Shown here piece by piece: positions 6,801-52,049 of a stretch of 64,000 bases of DNA. Each line of letters starts with the position of its first letter. The first letter of the stretch is position 1. Made by a program: the position numbers and the translations under genes. Under the pieces are notes generated by a model. It saw only the letters and a list, made by a program, of their open reading frames with translations, was not told the origin of the DNA and searched no databases. Source of the DNA: a virus (taxonomy: Duplodnaviria; Caudoviricetes); IMG/VR virus record IMGVR_UViG_3300026522_000022, positions 66,611 to 130,610 of that record. The stretch is one strand, 5' to 3'.

Positions 6801-8741
6801 ATGTACTTATTATAAACTTCTCGCAAAGTTAATTCTGGTTCAATTTCTTCATGCTCTTGGAGCATTTGAATACACTGAACAATAACATCCTGAATTTCTG
6901 TTACAAGAAAATCATACTTTACATCACCTACATATTCCGCGTCATGAAGTGAATATTGAGTTACAATTGCTCCACTCGTTGCTTTCATAAAACATGCTGT
7001 CTTATATGGGTCATTATCATAAAAATTAACGCCTGACGCATGAATACCACGATGGTTAATAAGACCCTCAATGTTTTCAATAATATTCAAAAGTCCTGGA
7101 TACTTGTTTACTTCATTAATAAAATTCTTTACTGGTTTGCGGCCAGTCTCTTCGTTTCCATATACCAGATCATGAATCGGCCAAACAAATCCTCGCTCAG
7201 ATGGCGCAAGACTTGTCATATACTGCGCAATATCGTTGTCAATTCCATTTGGAAAACTTTCACTACGATAACCACGACATGCTGTTGCAATTGCAGAACG
7301 AGTTGACTCTGTTCCATATGTACAAACTTGAACACATCCAAGTTGTCCGCGCTCTTCACGAATCTTACTAAAAATCTTTTCTCTCTTGGATGGACAAATA
7401 TCAATATCAATGTCGGGGAGTTCTACACGATCTTTATTCAGAAAACGCCAATATGGAAGTTCATACTTAATCGGGTCAAGCTGTGTAATACCGAGAAGAT
7501 AATGATTTAATCCTGCACAAGCTGAACCACGACCCGCGCCTACTGTGCTGCCGCACTCCCAAAAAAGATTAATATAATGCTGAAGAAAGATTGGATAACT
7601 AAACATACAAGTTTCCAACTTATCTCCAATTGTTTTTTGAATATCTGCTTCCTCTTCAAGACGCTGAAGATAAACATCATTATATAAACCAAGTTCTTTA
7701 AGTTTATCTACACAATAATTAACCCAATATCTTTCTTGAATTTCGTCACTTTGATAAAGATAATCAAGAGTTTTATATCCAAGAGAAGATGAAATCTTAG
7801 GATAATTATGAACCTCTACTTGCGGCACCTGCTGTTTGTGTGCCAAATTAAAATTTTCAATCTTATCATAAATCTCTATTGTATTCTTTTCAAGTTCATA
7901 ATAATCAAGGCCAGTATCTTTAAGATTTTCAATTACTTCTTCAGTTGATTGAAGATATGCATACTCATAAAATGCATCGACTTCTCGCTCACCATTCTTT
8001 GAATTAAGATATGCTTTATGAACTTCTCTATCTGCTTTTGAAAGATAATGCGCGTCAGTTGTTACAATAATCTTAACACCAAAATATTGCGCGAGAGCTT
8101 TCATGCGGCTGTTGACAACCATCTGCTCTCTACTTCTTGCTGGCTGAACTTCAAAATAATAATCATCACCGAACACATACTTGCACCACTCAACAAAGTC
8201 AATAATTTGATTATAATACTTTGTTTTACCCTCAATGTTTCCAAGATGTTCAGCCTTGCACATTTCAAGAATACAATAATCAAGTTCTGAACCAAGACAT
8301 GCGGAGGATGCAATTAGATTTCCTCGACCATACTTTCTCACAATACCTTCGAGGTCACTTTTAAGAGTTGGAACCCTCTCCATACCACGGTCATAATAAC
8401 TATTCATCCATGCAATAGACGAAAGTTCACGTAACATTTTATGTCCTGTTGCATTCTTTGCAATCAAGATAAAATGATAATATTTTTGCCCAGTTTCTCT
8501 CGTATCAGTAAGATAAATTTCATTACCGAGTGCTACTTTAAAATCAGGATATTCTTTCGCAATTTGATGACGATATTTATCTATAACCACATGACCGCCG
8601 AGAGACTCGTGATCCGTAACGGCGATCCCCGTAAGTCCAAGTTCAATTGCTCTATCTATAAGTTTTTCTGGGAAGTTAATTGAGTCAAAGTAAACGAATA
8701 TTGCTGTACATTGTATGACTATGCAGCTCCATCCTACCCAA
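3844..8741 (-). CDS. dnaE: DNA polymerase III alpha subunit; needs a +1 frameshift at 8690-8684 and splicing of intron 5196-6270
   Basis: PHP motif HSHTMYS..LL/DSIN..GIAVTDHE, GRGSA, PDIDID, HASG, MG/YSFSLIHS. Segment lengths are in frame after one skipped base. Confidence 0.9.
5196..6270 (-). mobile_element. Group I intron in dnaE
   Basis: P1 GGGGU/GCCCC, terminal G; the junction restores MGYSFS. Confidence 0.9.
5313..6125 (-). CDS. GIY-YIG homing endonuclease in the dnaE intron (TGA=Trp at 5885-5883)
   Basis: YIYCYENKING..YVGQT..R..EH; REQY-W(TGA)-I..GYN; C-terminal HTH repeats. Confidence 0.85.
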
Positions 8742-10251: not shown

Positions 10252-13099
10252 CTAAAAAACTCATTTAGTATCCAGTTTATAATCTTCTACAATAAGTTGA
10301 GCGCTAACATTCCCATTCCATTCATTTTTAGCTGCTCGACAAATTGCAGTTAAAATTTTATTTTGACCTATAAAATTTTCATACTCTTCTTGCGAAGATT
10401 TAAATTTCATAATATCAATTCCATTATCAAGATGAATCTTAATCGTTGGGTGCTTATCTGGAGAAAGTAAATGTACTTGATAAGGTTGAATAGAAATGTT
10501 TTCTATACAAATATAAGGTTCAGAAATTTCTTGTCCCCAATAAGGTTTTGCTTCTGCTATTGAGAGGATATCATCGCTGCTCATGTCATTCAAAGACCAA
10601 ATAAAGTCCACCCAATAGATAGGAGAATTAGATACATTTTTATATTGTTCATTTGTACTCTCTATAAAATCTTCTAATTTTGATTCTGGGATAGAAATAC
10701 CGAATGCTGAATCATGACCTTGCGCATATTCTACATCGCCCGTATCTTCACAGAGCTGCCGCATATCTTGAATTTCAGACATATTATAGTTGCGGGCGCT
10801 GCCACGATAAAACACTTCTTTATCATCTTTAGTTTTACTTTTAATTAATACTAAACAAGGACGCTGATATTTTGCTTGAATTTTATTTGCAACTAGTCCT
10901 GCGAGATTTTTTTCTACTTCTCCTGGTTCACACTTAAAAATAAGAATGGCATTGTCAAGAAGATTTTCCTCTAATATCTTGTTTTCAAGAAGAGCCATTG
11001 TCGAATCTTGTAACTTTGTTTGTCTTGCTTTAACATTGGTACAAATCCTTACTGCTTCTTCTACTCTTGGAACCATTTCTCCTTTGTGACCACGTTTGCC
11101 GCTAGGAATTTCCTCGAAAGCGTACATCTGTAAAAATGATTTAAAAATCATATCTTTTTCTTCTGCGGTTCCTGAACGAACCATAGCATTAATAAAAGGA
11201 GTTACATAAAATGCAATTGACATGTAATTAATGCCACCCATTTTATTAATACTAAACTCATTCTTTTCTGTCATATAATAAAAGAATGGGTTTTTAATAT
11301 TTTTTAATCCTAAATTAATAATAGCTCTGGTTTCTAATGAACGATAGTCCATCATATCAGACAACCACAAACTCTATTGTTTCCAATAGTGCAGACTATA
11401 TTTTACTCATATGAGTATATCTCTTTCGGTTTTCACGCACTTCGTTTCCTAAAATGCGGCTGCGTATCAATAGCAACCCTACTTCCCAGCATTTCAACCT
11501 AAGGAATAGTCGTTACAGGCTTCGATTTAAATATTCTTTCAAGTATATCTATAACAAACTTTTCTAATTGTTTCTTTTGAAACTTCTTGATAATCTTTAG
11601 CAATTTGTTTTCATTGCTCTCCATCATCAAATCTTTTTCTAATAGCTAAAACTTTTTCTTTTGTAAGTTTTGCTTTATTATTTCTTTCTCCAGAATTAGC
11701 GATTGAAGAATATTCTTGACGAGTTTTAGCTCCTTTAGGAATTATAAATTCTTGACCGATTTCTTTATAGCCATTTCCTAATCAAACATTTTCAAATGTA
11801 TTAAAAGATATATTGTTATAATCTTTATATACATCTACTTTTCTTTCTCCAAAAAATCTACGTTTTCTAATATCTAAAACTTGTTCATTGGTAAAAACTG
11901 CTTGATTAAAATCAGAACCACTTAAAGTTGAATTATCTCCGCCAGGAGTTAAATTATATCCTTTTTCTTTATCATTAGAATGATAAAAAGCAATTCAATA
12001 TTTTTCTCGTTCTCCCATCTGCATTCTATTTTCAGAATTGCAGAAATCAAGAATTTCTATTTCTTCAATTTTTCCATATTTATTAATAGCTAAATCACAA
12101 GGAGTTTTATTTGTTGATGGATTATTATGTTCTCACATTCTTCTTCTAATATCATTACTCATTCCTATATATATTTTATTATTAGGGAAAGTAATTTTGT
12201 AAATGCCAGACATATTATCCATTAAATCTTTTACTTGAATTTTCATAATACCTCCCTTCCGCAGGAGATATTTAAATCGATTCCCACGGGATTGCCATGT
12301 ATAATAGAGGTTTATCCATCATGTCTTCATGTCTCTATTATATTTAGGTTTCCCCGTTAGCAAATTATTGAGTTTTACCCAAAAATTTACCCCGCTGATA
12401 AACGGAAAAGATATATTAGCACGTTTATAAGTTCATGCCTAAAGCAGCTAAATCTAATAAATCAACAGAATGACATTTAACTTCAAAATAATTGCCACCA
12501 TTGGAAAAATAAGAGTCCATTGCACGACACATATGCCATGTTACGCCAGCACCACTTAAATTTTTATTAGGATAATCACAAATTTGATTATTAATTATAA
12601 TGGCATTTTTATTCCATACATCTGAATGGTGATGATCCATACAAATTACATCTATACCATTATCTAAAAGAGCTTGCATTTCATCTACATCATTAGTTCC
12701 TGCATCTGGTATAACAACTAATTTTGTCCAATTATCATTTAAAATATCTTCATAACAATCAGCTAATCCGTGTTGTTTACCTGTATGTAATATATAATCT
12801 ATATGCGTAGCCGCATATTCTGGTCATTGAGCGTATAGGTAATTAATAAATATCGCGGCAGAAGTAAAACCATCTGCATCACTATCTACAACAACAGTAA
12901 TATTATCTTCATCGTGATATGCTTGAATTATTCTTTGAATAAGTCTATTAACCATTTCTTGACCAAATAGACTTTCATCATAAATTTGTTTTCCATCTGC
13001 GTTTAACCAAGTATCTAATTCATCGAATTTTAATCCACGATTAATTAATACCTGGGTTAATGCTGAATATTTTGGTTCATTAAATATTTTGTAAATCAC
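10252..13099 (-). CDS. recJ: RecJ-like DHH ssDNA exonuclease; exons 13099-12435 and 11365-10252; two TGA=Trp
   Basis: DSDADG, DHH, LSGAGV, LAALGM/LSDMMD, GSAR, GHDSAFG. The exons sum to 1779 nt. Confidence 0.88.
11366..12434 (-). mobile_element. Group I intron in recJ
   Basis: P1 GCAU/GUGC, terminal G; core sequence closely resembles the dnaE intron. Confidence 0.88.
11527..12246 (-). CDS. GIY-YIG homing endonuclease in the recJ intron (several TGA=Trp; absent from the ORF track)
   Basis: SGIYKITFPNNKIYIGMSNDIRRRM-W(TGA)-EH; REKY-W(TGA)-IAFY..GYNLTPGG. Confidence 0.85.
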
Positions 13100-19495: not shown

Positions 19496-20134
19496 TTATT
19501 TATCAGGCCAAATTCCCGTAATGAATTCATTGTAAGGAAGTGTATGAACCCATTCTACAAAATCTTTAGACCATTGCAGCAGCCTGTGGTTTTTTCTTTG
19601 ACGATACATTGCTGCTAATGTTTCATAATTTAAGCAAACGGTACGTTTTTGAATAAATGACTCTGGTAACATAGCTTTTAACATTTTTAAATAATAATTT
19701 TTACGTTGAGGGTCATTTTTCGCTCGGTCAGCCGCAGTTTTTAAAACATTAATATAATCTTTAAAAGCAACTTCAATATTTCAATCTGCTCCATCAAATT
19801 CAGGTCATTCAAAATCTTCTTCGTCAAAATCTTCATCTAAAATTTTATGCATAGTAGATTCTGAATTTGCAGATGTGCCTATTTTATAAGTATCCCATTC
19901 TGCTCACCAGTATCTCGGCGCTCAAATATCTGCTCATACCTGAATCATACGTAAATATTTTCTATGTTCTGTTCCAGCTTGCCAAAGATTCTTTGCTAAC
20001 TTATAATCATTTGGCCCAAGATAAAAATGACCATTATCCCAATAGGAATCATATTTGTTATATGACTTTAAAGGGTTCCGCATACCTCGAATAGCTGGTT
20101 CAAAACCACTAACATTTAGAGTTTTAAATTTCAT
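19496..20134 (-). CDS. Conserved phage ThyX-like protein (several TGA=Trp)
   Basis: AIRGMRNP, HRKYLR, APRYWWAEWDTYKIG, STMHK, LPESF.QKRT, RKNHRL. One 213-codon frame with readthrough. Confidence 0.65.
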
Positions 20135-21066
20135 TAGCCTATTCCCTTGTTCCCATTATAACCTAAAGAATTAGAGTTATAAAGTGAAATAAAATATTTC
20201 TCTTTCTTATCTAAGTCTTGCGGCGGACACTCTTCTAATAATTCAAAACTGAAATTTTCAATTCCATATTCCTGCATAGCCGAGTATAATTTATTTCCTG
20301 TGGGAGTATCAATACCAATCGCGGCCTTAACGTGATCGTTTCATCTAAGCCGCACATCTTTAGCTTGACCAATATAACATTCTTCTGTTTGAAGATTTGT
20401 TATTTTATAGATGCCGCATACATTTTGTTTTCCTAATATTTTAGGAAATTTTATTTTAGTTATTGGCTGATAGTATGCAGTTCATATTACCATAGAAAGT
20501 GCGCGAGGTTTTGAAATTCTCATTTTAGTTTCTTCAAGGATTGCAATATCTCTTTGTTCTCCTTTTGGAAGAGACAAAGTAAAAAAATCTTTATTTGCTT
20601 TAATCTCTTTTTCTTTGCGTGCGGCTTCAATAACAGCAATTTTAGTATTTTGTAAAGACTGTAATTCTAAACCTGTTTCTTCAATTTCAACTAACATTTT
20701 ACGTCTTTGATTTTCAAGTTCAGTTAAGTCTTTATTAAATTCAGCCTCTAATACTTTTCGACGTTCTTCCGCAGCTTCTTCGGCTAACTGTTTTGTATTT
20801 TCAATTACTTTTATTTTTTCTTCATACTGACTTTGCAGTTCCGACTGACGGACCTCGGCCGCATGAATTTGTTCTTCTCTTCATTTTATATCAGATACTA
20901 AATTTTTAATTCTTAATTCTAACTTTTCTTCTTGATTGTGTAATTCTTCGCAAGTTTTTCTTATTTCTTCGTTTCTATCTTCTATTGGTTTAGAAGCAAA
21001 TTTGCGACCTACGAAAAAGGCAATAATAATTAATATTATTGCTACAACTCAAAAAATTCCATCCAT
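20134..21066 (-). CDS. Protein with an N-terminal TM helix, coiled coil and C-terminal GIY-YIG domain (four TGA=Trp)
   Basis: Hydrophobic N-terminus; CGIYKITNL..YIGQAKD..R-W(TGA)..H. 311-codon frame. Confidence 0.75.
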
Positions 21067-21120
21067 AACAAAATGGAGGTAGGGATATCCCTACCTCCAT
21101 CCTCCGTTATTTAAGTTAAA

Positions 21121-24898: not shown

Positions 24899-27820
24899 AA
24901 ATTTCCGCCCTTTCGCTGTTATCTCTAATGTAAATCTTGCGCTTTTCTGCATCTTTGCCCATCAATTGTTCAAAGAGCATATCAGCTTTGCCAAAATCTT
25001 CAATCGTAATTTGTTTAATAATTCTGGTTTCAGGATTTACTAGCGCCTCTTCGATTTCGTCAGAAGACATTTCTCCTACGTATGATTCCTTTATTTCTAA
25101 AGGTACTGACTATTTCTTCTATCGTATGATAGCTCACCGTTTCCACCTATGTACCAATAATAGGTGTACTCCCCAACAACGGGGATAGTCGATACAGGTT
25201 TTATTCTACGACGATATGTTTTCAATTATATCCATTCCAGATATTTTTAAAAGAACCTTTTGTAATACCCGTATATTTATAATCTTCATATACATCTTTT
25301 TGTTTTTCGCCATTCTTTTTTCTTAAACGAATGGCTAATACATCTTCTTCAGTAAGTTTTGAACGACCGTTTTGTGAACCTTTTTGTCCAGTGTTATGTT
25401 TATGAAATTCTATATTTTCTGGAGTGTAAACATCCATCATAACACCTTTTCAAGTTTCTCCTTTTCAAATTTTAGAAAAACCTGAATGACCAATTTTATC
25501 TTTATAAAGTTGCTCAACTTCTTTACAACGTTCTTTATTTTTATATCGTGTTCTTATATCTATAACATCTTGTTCAGTCATTTTATGCCGTGGATGATTT
25601 TCTCCATTGTTTCCCTCTCCGCCGCATCTAATATTATAACCATTATCATGAACTAAAGAATGATAATAATTAATTCAATATTGTTCTTTTTTATCTAAGT
25701 CATTCAAAGAACATTCTTCAATCACAGAAAATATAAAATTTTCTATTCCGTATTTCTTAAATGCTTTGTACAGAGGAGAATCGGCGTGTCGTTCTTGCTC
25801 ATATGGAGATTTATGTTGCGTCCATCTTCTTTCAATAAAATTAGATTGACCAATATAAATTTTACCATTTATTTTATTTTCTATTTTATAAATACCAATC
25901 ATATTATCTCCTTTCAATAATGATTAGAGATAATATCGTAGTAGAATAACTTCCCACGAGATTATCTTCTACTATATATAATTTTTAACATTTCACGGTT
26001 ATCCTGAAATACCCAAAATTATTTTATAGCGGTCAGACTCCCTCGTTAGCCGCAAATGCGACCCCGCTGGTAAACGGAAAAATGAGTAAGGGCCAGACTA
26101 TCTCTTACCCTTTTAAACGACTAACTTGATATTTGCTAATATCATTCTCTTGCTTAAATTCGGCAAGAGCATCGTCATCTTTAATATAGATAATCTCTTT
26201 ATTATTTTTCAATCTGAAAAGTGGTGGAACGCCCGCATATACAAAACCATCTTGAATCAGTTCTGGGGCAAAATTCCATATAAACGTATAAAAAAGATTT
26301 TTAATATGAGCTCCGTCTACGTCAGCATCGCTCATAATAATAATTTTTCCATAACGCACATCAGCCTTATTGTAGACAAGACGCTTGCCATCTGCACTAA
26401 CTTTCAGTCCAAAAGCATTAATCATATCTACAATCTCTGCATTTTTCATAATCTTATCCAGAGTTGCCTTTTGAGTGTTAAGAATCTTACCACGAACAGG
26501 AAGAACCGCTTGATATTCGTTATTACGAACTTGCTTTAGATTACCACCTGCAGAATCGCCCTCTGTGATATAAATCTCACATTTACTTCTGTCCTGACTA
26601 TAACAATCAGCAAGTTTAGAAGGAAGATTTAAAGACTTCTTCTTTGGCTCAGTCTTTACTTTTGCCTTAACAGCAGCCCTTGCTTTCTTCGCAGCTTCTG
26701 CCGCACGTCTAGCTAGAAGAGCTTTCTCAATAATATTTCTTCCATCTGTTGGATTGTTGTCTAGCCAAACTTCAAGTTGTTGTCCAAGAGTAGAAGAAAT
26801 AAATGAAGTATCAATCTTAGTTACGGTTGTTTTAACCTGGGCATTATAACCAACATTTTCAGCAGTGATATTGCAGACAAGAATCAAACCTTCTTGTAGA
26901 GAACTACCATCAAGATTCTTTTCTTTTTCTGTAAGAATACCCTGCTCTTTAGCCCACTTATTCATAATACGGGTGATGGTAGATTTAATACTTGTGATGT
27001 GCGGACCTTGCGTAGTATTGCCGCAATTAACATAAGTAATAATATTGCTGCTGTTCCGAGAAGTGTAAGTTAAAGCCAAATCAAGTTTTTGTTTTTTCTC
27101 TTTCTCTTGGATAATAAGTGGTGTATTAATAATTTCAATATCAGTTCCAATATTCTTTTTTAGAAAATCGGAAATACCATTTTCATGTCGAATTTGTTCA
27201 TTGTTAAATACAATTGTCAAATTAGGACAAAGGCATGTAATATCATCACAAAATTCTTTAAGCTTTTTAATATTAACATGCGGGTCATCAAAGAATTCTG
27301 CACTTGGCTTAAAGGTTACTGTTGTACCTGACCAGTTAAAACCGTCTCCAACTTCGCGCTTATCAAACACACCTTCTTTAAACCAAATATGCTCATACTC
27401 ACCAGTCTCTTTGTGAGAAATAACTTCCAACCAATTAGAAAGAAAGTTGGTAAGTTTGCTACCTTGGCCGTGTAGCCCCAACGCGCTACCTTCATACACT
27501 CCATCTGAAGAGAATTTACCAGATGTATTCATAACATCAAACGAAGCTTGGAGGATAGTTTCATTATCTTCACGAAGAACATTGATAGGAAATCCTTGTC
27601 CTTCATCTTCAATTTGAACAACACCATTATCAGCAATATTAATAATAATTTTATTTCCGTGTCCAATATTGTGCTCGTCAATAGCATTAGCTAGAATTTC
27701 TAGTGCCAACTGAGTAGGGTCTTGAGTATCTCCAATATACATACCAGGGCGTAAGCGAACATGCTCTCTAGGGGCCAAAGACTCAATACTATCATCAGTA
27801 TATAAAGTTTTATCCATCAA
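24891..27820 (-). CDS. gyrB: Type IIA topoisomerase subunit B; exons 27820-26107 and 25078-24891
   Basis: HVRLRPGMYIG, EGDSAGG, PVRGKILN, DADVDG, RLKG/LGEM after splicing. Confidence 0.92.
25079..26106 (-). mobile_element. Group I intron in gyrB
   Basis: P1 AAGGGU/GCCCUU, terminal G; the junction restores KGLGEM. Confidence 0.9.
25201..25902 (-). CDS. GIY-YIG homing endonuclease in the gyrB intron (four TGA=Trp)
   Basis: IGIYKIENKINGKIYIGQS; KEQY-W-I; I-W-KGET-W-K; GYN-W-KH. Confidence 0.85.
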
Positions 27821-28601
27821 AGACCCCTTTCTTTTTTAAATAGTTAAAATTAATTAAAGCTAAGTCAGTATAAGGAATTCTTATTAAATTAATATTATTA
27901 TCAACGCAATATTGATTTTTTATTTTATCTCTATATTGTACCGCTTTCAAAAAATCCTCCGTATAATATCCTCCGTTTGATTTAAAATGTTGTATACCAT
28001 CATATTCTATACAACAATTATATTTAGGCAAATAAAAATCAAATCTTAATATACCAGACGTTTTTTTATTTTTACATCTTCCGTTATCTGTTCATTCTTC
28101 AATAAAATCTATATTATTCTGCTGTAAAATATTTCGTAATAATAATTGTCCTTTAGATTTTTCTGAACATTTTGGACAACAAATTCTTTTTCTGGTGCCA
28201 TCTCCATATTTATCTCTATTTCATTCTCCAATTTGTAAATTAAATATATTCCCACAATCGCATCTAATTTGTCAGAGATTACCTCCATTAGAGCGACTTT
28301 CTATTTTTTTAACAGCAGTTAAAGAACCTTTTCGTTCGCCTGTTATATCTAAAGCATTTGCTTTATTTTTTGCAATAACTTTTTCTTTTTGCAAACATCC
28401 GCAACTTTTAGTGTTACCTGTTTTTAATTTGTGCATAGAAGTATAAATAATAGTATGATTATTACAAGAACATTGACATTTTCATAATCACCGATTATCG
28501 CTATCCTTTTTACCAGTAAATTCAAGAACTGTTAATCTATTAAAAACTTGTCCTGTAATATCTTCTATATTTCTTCCTGATGGGGCTTTAATATATTTCA
28601 T
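27810..28601 (-). CDS. Free-standing endonuclease: Zn-ribbon repeats plus Vsr/DUF559-like C-terminus (about five TGA=Trp)
   Basis: W-L-W-KCQC, SCGC, W.IRCDCG; IEYDGIQHF..RDKIKNQYC..LIRIPY. Confidence 0.75.
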
Positions 28602-28798
28602 TATTCCTCCATACCATTTAATCCGGTTTCTATGGTATTTTACTTTTATATAATAAAAATTATTTCTTTTTGCCCCAAATCAATTTATTTTTACTTTATA
28701 TAAGTATTATATCATTTTTAACTTATTCTGTCAATATAAACAAAAAATCTTACCGTGAGGTAAGATTTTTATAAATATTGCCGATAGGCAATATTTTA

Positions 28799-39641: not shown

Positions 39642-39679
39642 AATGAATCCGTAGCTTAGTCGGTAAAGCAGGTGACTTT

Positions 39680-40289
39680 TAAAATGGGAGCCTTATAAAG
39701 AAATTTATAAGTGAACACCCCGCTAAGTCGGTGAAACCTGTAAAATGGTAATACCGAGCAAGGAGTTTGACAAATGAATAGTAAAAGTAAGGGGAATATT
39801 TCAGAAGCAAGAACATTATTTGAATTTCAAAAATACAATATTCCAGTGTCTCTTCCATGAGGGGATAATGAAAGATATGATATGATTGCTGAATTTAATG
39901 GTAAATTAAATCGTATCCAAATAAAAACCTCAAATGAAGAAAACAATGGAGCAATTAAATGTTATTGCAGAAGTTCTACCAATCATACGACCAATAAAAA
40001 TTTAAGTACGTATGAAAATGATATTGATTATTTTGTATTTTATAATCAACAAAGAGATATTCTTGCTTTGGTGCCGATCGAAGTAGTAGGAAACAATAAA
40101 TCAATTTCACTTAGAATTGAACCTACTAATAACGGACAAACTAAAAATATTAAATTTTTTAATGACTATTCATTTGATAAAATTCTATGTGTAGAGACTT
40201 TACACGGGGAGCCTAAGTCATAAGATAAGGCTAAGATAAAGTCCAGGCCACAAACTACAAAAGTAGGCTATGAAAATAGTAATGGTATG
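39680..40289 (+). mobile_element. Group I intron in tRNA-Lys (position 35/36)
   Basis: Core words TCGGTGAAAC, TACCGAG, GTAGAGACT, AAGATAAAGTCC; terminal G. Confidence 0.88.
39774..40223 (+). CDS. Group I intron PD-(D/E)XK homing endonuclease (TGA=Trp)
   Basis: KGNISE..VSLP-W(TGA)-GDNERYDMIAE..RIQIKT, resembling tRNA-intron endonucleases of the I-Ssp6803I type. Confidence 0.8.
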
Positions 40290-40411
40290 TAATCACCAGA
40301 CCGTGGGTTCAAGTCCCACCGGATTCACCAGTTAAAAATAACTCTTTTCTAATAAAGAATTTTATGATATAATATAAATATAAAAGAGAGAGAAAAAATA
40401 ATTTCTTTTAT

Positions 40412-40487: not shown

Positions 40488-40561
40488 GCCGCCTTAGCTC
40501 AACAGTAGAGCAGTTGGCTCTTAACCTCCAGACGTAGGGGCAGCACCTACAGGCGGTACCA
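40488..40561 (+). tRNA. tRNA-Lys(CTT), atypical
   Basis: GCCGCCT/AGGCGGT acceptor, CTCTTAA loop, CCA. The anticodon stem is mismatched and the T loop reads GGCAGCA. Confidence 0.65.
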
Positions 40562-42493: not shown

Positions 42494-42579
42494 GCCAGTG
42501 TCGCATAGTGGTCGATTGCACTCGCCTTGTAAGCGAGACTCAAAAGAGCACGTCAGTTCGAATCTGACCACTGGCTCCA
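42494..42579 (+). tRNA. tRNA-Thr(TGT) with a long variable arm
   Basis: ctcgc-CTTGTAA-gcgag; extra arm ctc-aaaa-gag; CCA. Confidence 0.8.
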
Positions 42580-42730: not shown

Positions 42731-42822
42731 GCCTCGGTAGTTTAACGGTAGAACGGCAGCCTTATAAGCTGTAAGCGCCAGATTAGCGCGAAATCTTGGT
42801 TCGAATCCAAGTCGAGGTACCA
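42731..42822 (+). tRNA. tRNA-Ile(TAT) with a long variable arm
   Basis: gcagc-CTTATAA-gctgt; extra arm gcgc/gcgc; CCA. Confidence 0.82.
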
Positions 42823-45232: not shown

Positions 45233-46386
45233 GAGAGTATCTAATAAGAACCTAGTTCGACAGATACTTTCAAAAAGGGAATTTCGATTCCTGATACGAG
45301 ATTCCGCACATCTCGGAGCCAAAATGTGCGGCGGAAACGAAACCGTGAGAGCTTCGCCTAAGCCGTGATGGAGAAAGCGGTCGGTCTGCCACACGCCTGT
45401 CGCGTGTGGACGGTCATTCAAGAGACGGGTATCTTGAACGTATTGGCAAACACGTGATATTTGCTGGTTTTAACCATCTGTTACCAATAACAGAAGGCGC
45501 GGGCAAGCGCGAGCAACTTGTCTCGGGAATTGACTCTAGCCCGAATCCAAGTGGTGGCTCCGCAAAGGGTTATCGTCCTAAGTATGACATTAAACTGCTT
45601 CGAGATTTTTCTCGCATACGAGACTCGTTAAATAAGTGTATGCAAACCTTGCGTAGCGCGTCAAGTAAAGCTTCGGGCAACGTGTCATGGTCATAAACAC
45701 GTAAAAATGACGACCCCGGGCGCTTATAGGTTTGGCACCGGTTCAACGTGAAACCTAATATTGCTCTTTGATAAAGTCATATCAAAAACTATGTGAACCA
45801 TGTGTATGCGTAATACCATACGGTCATGGGTATTGAGTCAACAGAGTCGAAATCTATGGGATACTTTAGATGTAAACTTTGTGGTGGTAGGTAACCAAGC
45901 CACAGGAGCGGAGAAAGCCGAAAGGTGCCGCAACTAAAAACTCAATAGCGCCAATTAATTTTGCAGTCAAAAGGTAGTGTCTTGTCGCTTCCGCAATAGA
46001 CGCTCTCTGTGAGAGAAGAACCTAGAACACTCACTAACGGGTGGTGCCGAGTGAGAACTAAGCTAGGAATACCAATTAAGGAAGTTTCCAGTGCGGCTGT
46101 GGTAACACAGCTTATAAGACGAGTTCAACGTGCGAGTAGCCCAATCTGGAAAGATATATTCGATTATAGCCATTTAGAAATGGAAATCTAAATCATTATA
46201 GTCTGAATGGTGGGTGAAAGCTGTCGGGTAAGCAATCCCGCGATGGAACTGGCAATTATGCTGGGGCAAGAAGTTATAGGGTCGCTCCTTATAGCTCAGA
46301 CTTGTCTCCCATGTGACTGAATATTGATGCGAAGCTAAGAGGTAAGGCGAAGGTCTCTTATAGTTTTTGATATGGCTTTATCAAAG
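45233..46386 (+). ncRNA. Very large structured ncRNA region (one GOLLD-like RNA or two RNAs)
   Basis: About 1.15 kb, GC-richer, no credible ORF, behind tandem promoters. A 27-bp helix joins 45766-45792 to 46360-46386. Confidence 0.6.
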
Positions 46387-48349: not shown

Positions 48350-48553
48350 ATGTCTTTGTGGAATGAGCTAAAAGAATATGTAGTAGCTGATGAAATAATT
48401 AATGGTGAACTTAGTCATTATTATACAATTCGAGTCAAGACAGATGTTTCTCCTAATAGATTTAAAATTGTTGCATCTTTTAATAGTTATGAAGAAGCTC
48501 ATAATTTTGTTAAAGGACTGCGACTTTTAAAGCAATACAGGAGTGTGGTGTAA
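48350..48553 (+). CDS. Hypothetical protein; its 3' end overlaps the tRNA-Trp 5' end
   Basis: SD and ATG; the stop codon lies in the tRNA D arm. Confidence 0.5.
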   Translation: MSLWNELKEYVVADEIINGELSHYYTIRVKTDVSPNRFKIVASFNSYEEAHNFVKGLRLLKQYRSVV

Positions 48554-48826
48554 CGGTAGCACAGCGGTCTTTAAATATGGAGCTTTTAATTGGAAACAAT
48601 TAAAGTGCAGCGGATGATATCGGTGAACCCTGTAAAATGGCAACACCGAGGGAAGATAAGTTCACCCGTAGAGACTAGATAATCCGCCACCTAAGTCATT
48701 TGATAAGGTGAAGATATAGCCCAGACCACAAACCGCAAGGGTAGTGAAAACTATAGTGGTAAGCAAAACCGTCAACGATGGCCTCCAAACCCATCGGCGG
48801 GGGTTCGAATCCCTCCACTCCTGCCA
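48539..48826 (+). tRNA. Opal-suppressor tRNA-Trp(TCA) split by a group I intron; exons 48539-48571 and 48764-48826
   Basis: Splicing gives gcggt-CTTCAAA-accgt. Acceptor AGGAGTG/CACTCCT with G73 is Trp-type; 7/5 fold; CCA end. Confidence 0.85.
48572..48763 (+). mobile_element. Minimal group I intron (192 nt) at anticodon position 34/35
   Basis: Core homologous to the tRNA-Lys intron; P1 CUUUA/UGGAG with U34-G; terminal G. Confidence 0.88.
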
Positions 48827-50971: not shown

Positions 50972-51017
50972 ATCTATCCCATGATTTTTATATATTATAG
51001 GATAGAAAGGAAATAAA

Positions 51018-52049
51018 ATGCCAAAAAGAAAAGAATATAAATATTTAGAACCTGTGGGAAATAAAGGAGTTCTTTTTATATCAGATTATTATGAAGATGG
51101 AACTCCTATTGAACCATGAGTTTATATAAATAAAAATGGAAAAACACAAAATTTTAGACGAGCAAGATTTCGTTGTCCCATATGTCATAAAGATTTTATT
51201 AGTAAAATTAATCAAGTAAATAGTGGTAATAAAATTTATTGTAGTTCAGAATGTTCCGGAAAAGCAACTACTTTAAGACAAAATGAGCATTTTGAAATAG
51301 GAGATTATGTTGATAAAAATAAACTTTTTATTTATTTAGGAGAAGCAGGTAAAAATTCTAGTAATAGACGAAAAATAAAAGTTTTAAAGCAAGAAACAAA
51401 TGAAATTTTTGAAGCAACTGTTAATAATATAAAAGCTGGAAATACAACTAGAGGGCCAAAAGAATTAAAAGAATTTCGTCAGCAATTAGTTAAATCACCT
51501 AAACTACAGCAGGCTAGAATAAACAGTAATACTTTATATCATGTTGGAGATATTCTAGGTCCAGATAATAATATTTTATTTCAAAAAGAAATTGAAAGAA
51601 CTAATCCAGAACATCGTAGAGGTAAATTTTTAAATTTATGAAATAATATTGAATTTGAGGCTAATTTATCCAATGTTATTAGAGGAGATGCTACTGGAAA
51701 TAAAATTTCTAAGGGAGAATTAAAATTATATAAAATATTATCTGATTGATGTGATGATCTTGAAATTCAAAAGAGTTTTAATGATTTAAAAAATCCTCAA
51801 ACCAATTGCTTATTATATTTTGATGCATATTCTTATAATTTAAATTGTGTTTTTGAATATGACGGAGAGCAACATTTTAAAGCTATTGATAATTGAGGAG
51901 GAGAAGAAGGATTAAAGCAACGTCAATATTTAGATAATTTAAAAAATGAATATTGTAAACAACATAATATTAAAATAATTAGAATTCCTTATACAGATTA
52001 TAATATTTTATCTATAGATTATTTAAAGGAAAAAATTAATGATAACTAA
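51018..52049 (+). CDS. Free-standing endonuclease, Vsr/DUF559-like C-terminus (about four TGA=Trp; absent from the ORF track)
   Basis: CPIC, SKGE, EYDGEQHF..W(TGA)GG..LDNLKNEYC..IIRIPY. Confidence 0.75.

Follow-up and report, generated by a model that had tools for sequence, protein, structure and literature searches.

How are the suppressor tRNAs of stop-codon-recoded phages charged in hosts that use the standard genetic code? We addressed this question at a tRNA gene in a 64,000-nt stretch of viral DNA (hereafter the window), which makes up the latter half of an IMG/VR phage record 130.6 kb long (completeness estimated at 90%, GC 30–43%). The phage is of the same kind as the gut and rumen phages with an opal suppressor tRNA(UCA) described by Borges et al. 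(bioRxiv 10.1101/2021.08.26.457843), being AT-rich and about 130 kb long, reading in-frame TGA as Trp, carrying TGA-rich homing endonucleases, and having no tryptophanyl-tRNA synthetase (TrpRS) of its own, with presumed reliance on the enzyme of the host. Only 35% of the TGA-recoded genomes in that study had a detectable suppressor tRNA and phage synthetases were very scarce, and its authors anticipated that suppressor tRNAs which had gone undetected might be non-canonical in structure (Borges et al., bioRxiv 10.1101/2021.08.26.457843). Unlike the suppressor tRNAs reported there, for which no special structure was described, the tRNA analysed here is hidden by an intron and carries a fifth arm.

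The tRNA gene lies at positions 48,539–48,826 on the + strand and is split by a 192-nt intron, probably of group I. Exon 1 (48,539–48,571) contains the acceptor 5′ strand AGGAGTG, the D arm, A26, the 5′ strand GCGGT of the UCA arm, and C32, U33 and U34 of the anticodon loop. The intron (48,572–48,763) follows between U34 and C35, and exon 2 (48,764–48,826) resumes with C35, A36, A37 and A38, the 3′ strand ACCGT of the UCA arm (48,768–48,772), the linker CAA, an extra arm exposing CCA, the T arm (48,799–48,815), the acceptor 3′ strand (48,816–48,822) to which the acceptor strand of exon 1 is complementary, G73 (48,823) and an encoded CCA end (48,824–48,826), all on the + strand. Joining 48,539–48,571 to 48,764–48,826 yields a 96-nt tRNA with five arms, arranged as acceptor, D arm, a GCGGU-CUUCAAA-ACCGU arm, the extra arm and the T arm, with a 7-bp acceptor, a 5-bp T stem and a 4-bp D stem closed by a 7-nt loop. 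The arm after position 26 carries UCA once the transcript is spliced, not CCA, which belongs to the next arm. ViennaRNA folded the spliced RNA into a cloverleaf with an extra 6-bp arm (−32.2 kcal/mol), the ARAGORN drawing matched this fold with anticodon UCA under the label tRNA-SeC, and an intron-less relative folded in the same way.

The extra arm (48,776–48,796, + strand) is in the 3′ exon, and the hairpin CGAUGG-C-CUCCAAA-C-CCAUCG reported in the preliminary description reads exactly so in the sequence, with CGATGG at 48,776–48,781, C at 48,782, CTCCAAA at 48,783–48,789, C at 48,790 and CCATCG at 48,791–48,796. The hairpin stands, whereas the two C residues flanking the loop form a mismatch at a position where most relatives have U-A. 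We accordingly prefer to read the arm as a 5-bp stem (ATGGC/CCCAT, 48,778–48,782 with 48,790–48,794) with the 7-nt loop CUCCAAA, a broken closing pair (the C-C mismatch), and two outer pairs, C-G and G-C.

The intron boundaries, and with them the anticodon, were fixed by relatives. Eight intron-less loci carry the same tRNA with contiguous exons, reading GGTCTTCAAAACCGT and giving CTTCAAA exactly at the junction, and an intron-containing locus (L004) has exons identical to those of an intron-less one (L024), from which the intron is precisely absent. The anticodon is therefore UCA rather than UUA. The splice sites (CTT/TAAAT … GTAAG/CAAA) have U before the 5′ splice site and G as the last intron base; the ochre anticodon “tta” assigned by ARAGORN in intron mode to the unspliced gene would need an intron that does not end in G, and was rejected given the CTTCAAA of the intron-less relatives. 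The Rfam model Intron_gpI matched the 192-nt insert over model positions 1–253 at 41.9 bits (E = 8.9e−10), under its gathering score of 50 and only in a search limited to a 216-nt region. Rfam at gathering thresholds and in wider searches reported neither the tRNA nor the intron, and ARAGORN without its intron option called no tRNA at 48,539–48,826, because the 192-nt intron splits the anticodon loop.

By blastn, the intron core resembles an intron in a crAss-like phage helicase gene carrying a GIY-YIG endonuclease. Among the 34 distinct relatives listed, the intron is present in 11 and absent from 23. The group I introns in the anticodon loops of bacterial tRNAs, such as cyanobacterial tRNA-Leu(UAA) and Azoarcus tRNA-Ile, are likewise small, placed after U34 in a CUU context, preceded by U at the 5′ splice site and ended by G; unlike those, the intron here resides in a phage suppressor tRNA and its presence varies among relatives. 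A second intron-split tRNA gene lies at 39,645–40,330, where 39,645–39,679 joined to 40,290–40,330 gives a 76-nt RNA called tRNA-Lys(UUU) by ARAGORN. Its 610-nt insert has a 31-nt stretch in common with the Trp intron, and the “Stop(tta)” label that ARAGORN gave this gene was an artefact of boundary placement.

Which amino acid stands at TGA was read from protein alignments. In-frame TGA codons of ThyX, of NrdD, of a guanylate kinase, of a methyltransferase and of several homing endonucleases are bridged by PHROG matches. For NrdD and the guanylate kinase, PDB alignments likewise continue through TGA codons, which there align with F, E or N and are uninformative on the amino acid. The ThyX-family gene (19,496–20,155, − strand) contains five in-frame TGA codons, across which its PHROG match runs, and in 115 full-length homologues four of the five TGA columns are mostly W (111, 103, 73 and 61 sequences), the same pattern as at the TGG columns. 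As judged from these alignments, TGA is read as tryptophan in this phage. The tRNA at 48,539–48,826 is the sole tRNA with a UCA anticodon in the genome, no tRNA-Trp(CCA) was found there, and the TrpRS/TyrRS family PF00579 is absent from the 90%-complete genome. Five GIY-YIG or HNH homing-endonuclease genes (11,527–12,438, 20,134–21,090, 25,201–25,923 and 27,810–28,706 on the − strand; 51,006–52,049 on the + strand) hold 4–7 in-frame TGA codons each, echoing the report of Borges et al. that an intron endonuclease was preferentially recoded.

The ancestry of the extra arm emerged from a blastn comparison of the whole gene with GenBank phages, in which only two parts matched, the intron core and the last 51–53 nt. 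The latter span the extra arm through to the CCA end and aligned with the 3′ halves of some 170 phage genes for ordinary tRNA-Trp(CCA), so that the extra arm, the next 4 nt, the T arm and the acceptor are all homologous to the 3′ part of tRNA-Trp(CCA). When the UCA arm and its linker (22 nt) were removed on paper, ARAGORN called the remaining 74 nt tRNA-Trp(cca), and these could be aligned over their full length with the tRNA-Trp annotated in Xanthomonas phage XacN1; the anticodon stem there, ATGGA/TCCAT, is nearly that of the extra arm, ATGGC/CCCAT. Because the trimmed tRNA aligns with a tRNA-Trp, the extra arm is a genuine Trp anticodon arm by descent and the UCA arm is the added part. The suggestion that the arm is a relic of an anticodon-arm duplication or insertion is supported, as an account of its origin, by this homology.

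Relatives of the two-armed tRNA comprised at least 34 distinct sequences from at least 54 phage loci, lower bounds rather than a census. The first scan of viral contigs forced the loop to be CTCCAAA and was unable to test loop conservation; it returned 22 loci with covarying stems. Repeat scans left either the extra loop or the UCA arm free; in three of these, most of the matches listed were chance matches, and the resulting counts are lower bounds. Scans fixing only the UCA arm or the intron end recovered the earlier loci together with new members, whose loops were CUCCAAC, GUCCAAA, UUCCAAC or GGUCCAAG; three of the loci (L107, L148 and L160) have quite different tRNA bodies with Sec-like D arms, and still UCCAA. 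With the D arm and the CCA loop fixed and the first arm free, further members were found in which the loop of the first arm was always CUUCAA(A/C) and its unconstrained stems covaried (CGAAU/AUUCG, GUGGU/ACCAU, CAGGU/ACCUG, CGGGU/ACCCG and GCAGU/ACUGU).

These relatives bore out the check on homologues proposed in the preliminary description: the loop is NUCCAAN in 34/34 distinct sequences and the stem covaries. All four core pairs of the extra arm form in 20/20 distinct relatives, with 3–5 pair types each, and one stem pair occurs as GC, CG, AU and UA around an invariant UCCAA. The covariation score of the arm was 0.49 against 0.14 in shuffles, with 0/500 shuffles reaching 0.49, and sliding the 3′ partners by 1–3 columns gave at most 0.14. 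On the evidence of the aligned sequences, the design of the extra arm is more than chance. G73 is present in 34/34 of the distinct relatives listed; the linker before the CCA arm measures 3–7 nt and the one after it 4 nt in 30/34, the latter being likened to a class I variable loop. The closing pair (the 31–39 equivalent) is U-A in every UCA arm, including the arms left unconstrained by the search, and its counterpart in the CCA arm is mismatched (C-A or C-C) in 8/34 distinct sequences, the tRNA of the window included. The CCA arm is accordingly under looser constraint than a working anticodon arm, with its loop bases fixed, a pattern more suggestive of a recognition element than of a second decoding head.

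Every Trp-like long tRNA(UCA) listed carries UCCAA. True tRNA-Sec found with the same viral patterns had no CCA in the variable loop, with one exception among the Sec-like genes, from a bacterial metagenome-assembled genome (MAG; L441), that has UCCAA. Nor was there a CCA in the variable loop of two long-armed phage tRNA-Trp in which CCA is the real anticodon, and a short variable loop does occur in some phage tRNA(UCA). The scan of genome contigs returned mostly chance matches and four two-armed genes in bacterial MAG contigs (L364/L478, L441 and L482). A 301-kb contig of a sheep-rumen Clostridia MAG (L374) holds a fragment resembling the 3′ half, in which the arms are degraded and the T arm, the acceptor strand, the G and the CCA are intact; it may be an attachment-site remnant and a hint of the host. 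L004 also contains a phage-encoded tmRNA (7,986–8,409, − strand, 73.7 bits), separated by about 220 nt from its two-armed tRNA(UCA) gene.

A second tRNA of the window has a comparable arm. The 92-nt tRNA-Ile(UAU) at 42,731–42,822 (+ strand) contains an extra arm, GCGC-CAGAUUA-GCGC (42,775–42,789, ARAGORN drawing), which presents the usual Ile anticodon, GAU. Another nine long tRNA-Ile(UAU) from unrelated phage loci (L041, L045, L059, L066, L078, L085, L091, L102 and L119) were caught by accident in the scans, and in 10/10 distinct sequences the loop is (C/U)AGAU(N)A on covarying 3–4 bp stems, followed by a 5-nt linker. As in the Trp tRNA, an anticodon with U34 serves the A-ending codon of a split box and the extra arm bears the host’s ordinary anticodon for the same amino acid; the Ile arm differs in its stem of only 3–4 bp and in having A where U33 would be. 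Among 78 long tRNAs whose variable region forms a hairpin with a 7-nt loop, only the combinations Trp(UCA) with CCA and Ile(UAU) with GAU were enriched, and the two have in common a split-box codon (UGA/UGG, AUA/AUG), a U34 anticodon and a synthetase that reads position 34. From these sequences, the long tRNA-Ile(UAU) with a GAU loop is an independent parallel to the Trp design; no publication on it was found. Special IleRS variants for UAU are reported in references cited by a review of tRNA identity (PMC9976931).

Other long tRNAs were set against these two. A 93-nt tRNA-Arg(UCU) (L039) has the variable-arm loop AUACGAA, containing the ordinary Arg anticodon ACG, as a single case; it and a few Ser cases were within chance and were rejected as pseudo-anticodons. 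The tRNA-Thr(UGU) at 42,494–42,579 (86 nt) has a long variable arm (stem CUC/GAG, loop AAAA) with no anticodon mimic, and among the loci retrieved many phages have tRNAs of this long-armed kind for Asn(GUU), Cys(GCA), initiator Met, Lys, Gly and Val. Within the tRNA cluster, the stretch at 45,774–46,375, proposed earlier as a noncoding RNA candidate, was identified as a full-length ROOL RNA (Rfam RF03087, 347.6 bits), and a further tRNA at 40,488–40,558 was reported by Rfam (40.8 bits) and missed by ARAGORN.

Considering the descent and conservation of the CCA arm together, we tentatively propose, at somewhat short of even confidence, that the ancestral CCA arm has been kept as a pseudo-anticodon handle for host TrpRS while the UCA arm decodes. 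In this scheme, a tRNA-Trp body would have gained a second anticodon arm (UCA) between position 26 and the original anticodon arm, by duplication or insertion, leaving the original CCA arm in the place of a variable arm. Once the presumed group I intron has spliced out, the UCA arm would decode UGA, and probably UGG, on the ribosome, and the CCA arm would offer host TrpRS the C34-C35-A36 determinants that the enzyme normally reads. A phage without a TrpRS of its own could in this way have its opal-reading tRNA charged efficiently with Trp, TrpRS presumably binding the extra arm and charging being raised thereby.

The distribution of synthetases and identity elements speaks indirectly for this proposal, as do the invariant UCCAA loop on its covarying stems, the GAU arm of tRNA-Ile(UAU) and the lack of a CCA variable loop in the two long-armed tRNA-Trp that decode with CCA. 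PF00579 was absent from 33/33 phage records with the two-armed tRNA, 12 of them complete, and present in 1/6 records with a short tRNA(UCA). Among the Trp identity elements of bacteria, the anticodon and G73 are major ones, A1-U72, G2-C71, G3-C70 and G5-C68 are also listed, and both TrpRS and IleRS read anticodon position 34 (review PMC9976931). The acceptor of the tRNA here, AGGAGTG/CACTCCT followed by G and CCA, has A1-U72, G2-C71, G3-C70, G5-C68 and G73. A GUG pseudo-anticodon engineered into a variable arm improved charging when HisRS had been fused to an additional anticodon-binding domain (PMC7590224). Geometry counts against a handle, as the variable arm leaves the tRNA core in a direction other than that of the anticodon arm, and native TrpRS would reach the extra arm only if the two arms swapped places or the enzyme bound differently. 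The engineered arm, too, depended on the added binding domain. In an E. coli extract, 9/31 phage UGA suppressors were active and all 13/13 analysed inserted Trp (bioRxiv 10.1101/2025.10.30.685624), indicating that a short tRNA(UCA) can receive Trp and that a handle is not strictly required.

A swap of the two arms is the substance of one alternative, in which the tRNA is two-headed, with a five-way junction, two conformers and two true anticodon arms. The conformer with the CCA arm in the canonical place would be charged and might read UGG, and the one with the UCA arm there would read UGA. Each arm is indeed canonical on one side, A26 adjoining the UCA arm on its 5′ side and the 4-nt loop of class I type adjoining the CCA arm on its 3′ side, and the CCA loop retains U33 and A37 on what is usually a 5-bp stem with a 7-nt loop. 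However, the UCA anticodon already reads UGG by wobble, making a second decoding arm unneeded; the closing pair is always U-A in the UCA arm and broken in about a quarter of CCA arms (the 8/34 above); and the Ile analogue, with A at the U33 position and only 3–4 bp, would be unable to decode. The earlier idea of an alternative fold that reads UGG keeps the two half-canonical arms in its favour and is otherwise weakened by these features, and we consider the switching tRNA unlikely.

We rate as equally unlikely that the CCA loop owes its preservation to some partner besides TrpRS, be it a T-box leader, a modification enzyme, a protein of the phage itself, or an anticodon nuclease that the loop would bait. 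Loop invariance shows sequence-specific selection and leaves the partner unnamed. Candidate T-boxes would be those of host trpS or the trp operon (specifier UGG) and, for the Ile analogue, ileS (specifier AUC); the mimicked CCA and GAU are the anticodons with which T-box specifier codons would pair in Firmicutes. Against this, T-box stem I measures the distance from anticodon to elbow, which an off-axis arm may not satisfy, and no candidate partner was identified in the genome. The notion of a decoy for anticodon nucleases, also raised in the preliminary description, found no evidence: a cleavable CCA loop in the same molecule is a liability, since bait within the suppressor tRNA would destroy the tRNA itself.

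Less probable again is a neutral relic, in which the arm is left over from duplication or insertion and serves only as a structural variable arm, its loop sequence being without function. Such a history would suit an arm so clearly homologous to an ordinary Trp anticodon arm, and many phage tRNAs have long variable arms without an anticodon mimic. Yet UCCAA persists in 34 distinct sequences although their stems differ at up to 4/5 pairs and their bodies diverge, and the same logic arose in tRNA-Ile(UAU). Finally, a tRNA-Sec or a Ser-accepting class II suppressor, in which the long arm would be a SerRS identity element, is suggested by the UCA anticodon, the long extra arm, G73 and the ARAGORN label, and is ruled out for practical purposes by the 7/5 geometry with a 4-bp D stem (against 8/5, a 6-bp D stem and a 4-nt loop in bacterial tRNA-Sec), by TGA sites that align with W rather than Ser, Cys or Sec, and by the different appearance of true tRNA-Sec from the same scans; class II tRNAs in general (Ser, Leu, Tyr), whose variable arm has a short loop and lies no more than about 3 nt from the T stem, were likewise rejected given the 7-nt anticodon-type loop, the 4-nt linker in 30/34 and W at TGA.

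We then compared the proposed handle for host TrpRS with known systems. Full-text literature searches found no natural tRNA with a second anticodon-type arm, in agreement with the preliminary description, which knew of no two-anticodon tRNA. The nearest precedent is engineered (Mukai 2020, PMC7590224), where a copy of an anticodon arm was likewise placed in the variable arm of a suppressor tRNA, there to recruit an aminoacyl-tRNA synthetase. That system is synthetic, concerns His on an allo-tRNA chassis, required the HisRS fusion and had a modest effect, whereas the case here is natural and would use unmodified host TrpRS. Hairpins with a cognate anticodon loop outside the anticodon position of a tRNA are also found in the E. 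coli thrS operator and in yeast aminoacyl-tRNA synthetase mRNAs, such hairpins being recognised by the anticodon-binding site of the synthetase (PMC9976931). Those mRNA mimics are regulatory and not aminoacylated, and the mimic here belongs to the very tRNA that serves as substrate. Class II tRNAs and the nematode nev-tRNAs also have a long extra arm between the anticodon and T arms, and in nev-tRNAs the amino acid is set by this arm rather than by the anticodon (UAU or CCC) (PMC3333845). Class II arms act by length and orientation and have short loops of 3–5 nt, in contrast to the 7-nt anticodon-type loop of fixed sequence here, and the amino acid here (Trp) matches the mimicked anticodon, unlike in class II (Leu or Ser).

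Taken with the Ile parallel, the Trp design may, more conjecturally than the handle itself, reflect a general way for phages to extend decoding without a synthetase of their own. A host-type anticodon hairpin would be kept as the second arm of a tRNA whose wobble base breaks the anticodon rule of the host enzyme (UCA for UGA as Trp, UAU for AUA as Ile); the tRNA would be charged via this pseudo-anticodon, perhaps in a conformer with that arm in the canonical place, and the other arm would decode. Owing to its intron and fifth arm, the Trp tRNA gene of the window is overlooked by standard gene finders or labelled tRNA-Sec. For phages that recode stop codons in standard-code hosts, the conserved CCA hairpin suggests a concrete mechanism by which the suppressor tRNA could be charged. 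Should native TrpRS respond to the handle, nature would have provided an example of a tRNA identity element relocated away from the anticodon, and this would supply a simple design rule by which suppressor or rare-codon tRNAs could be made acceptable to unmodified synthetases.
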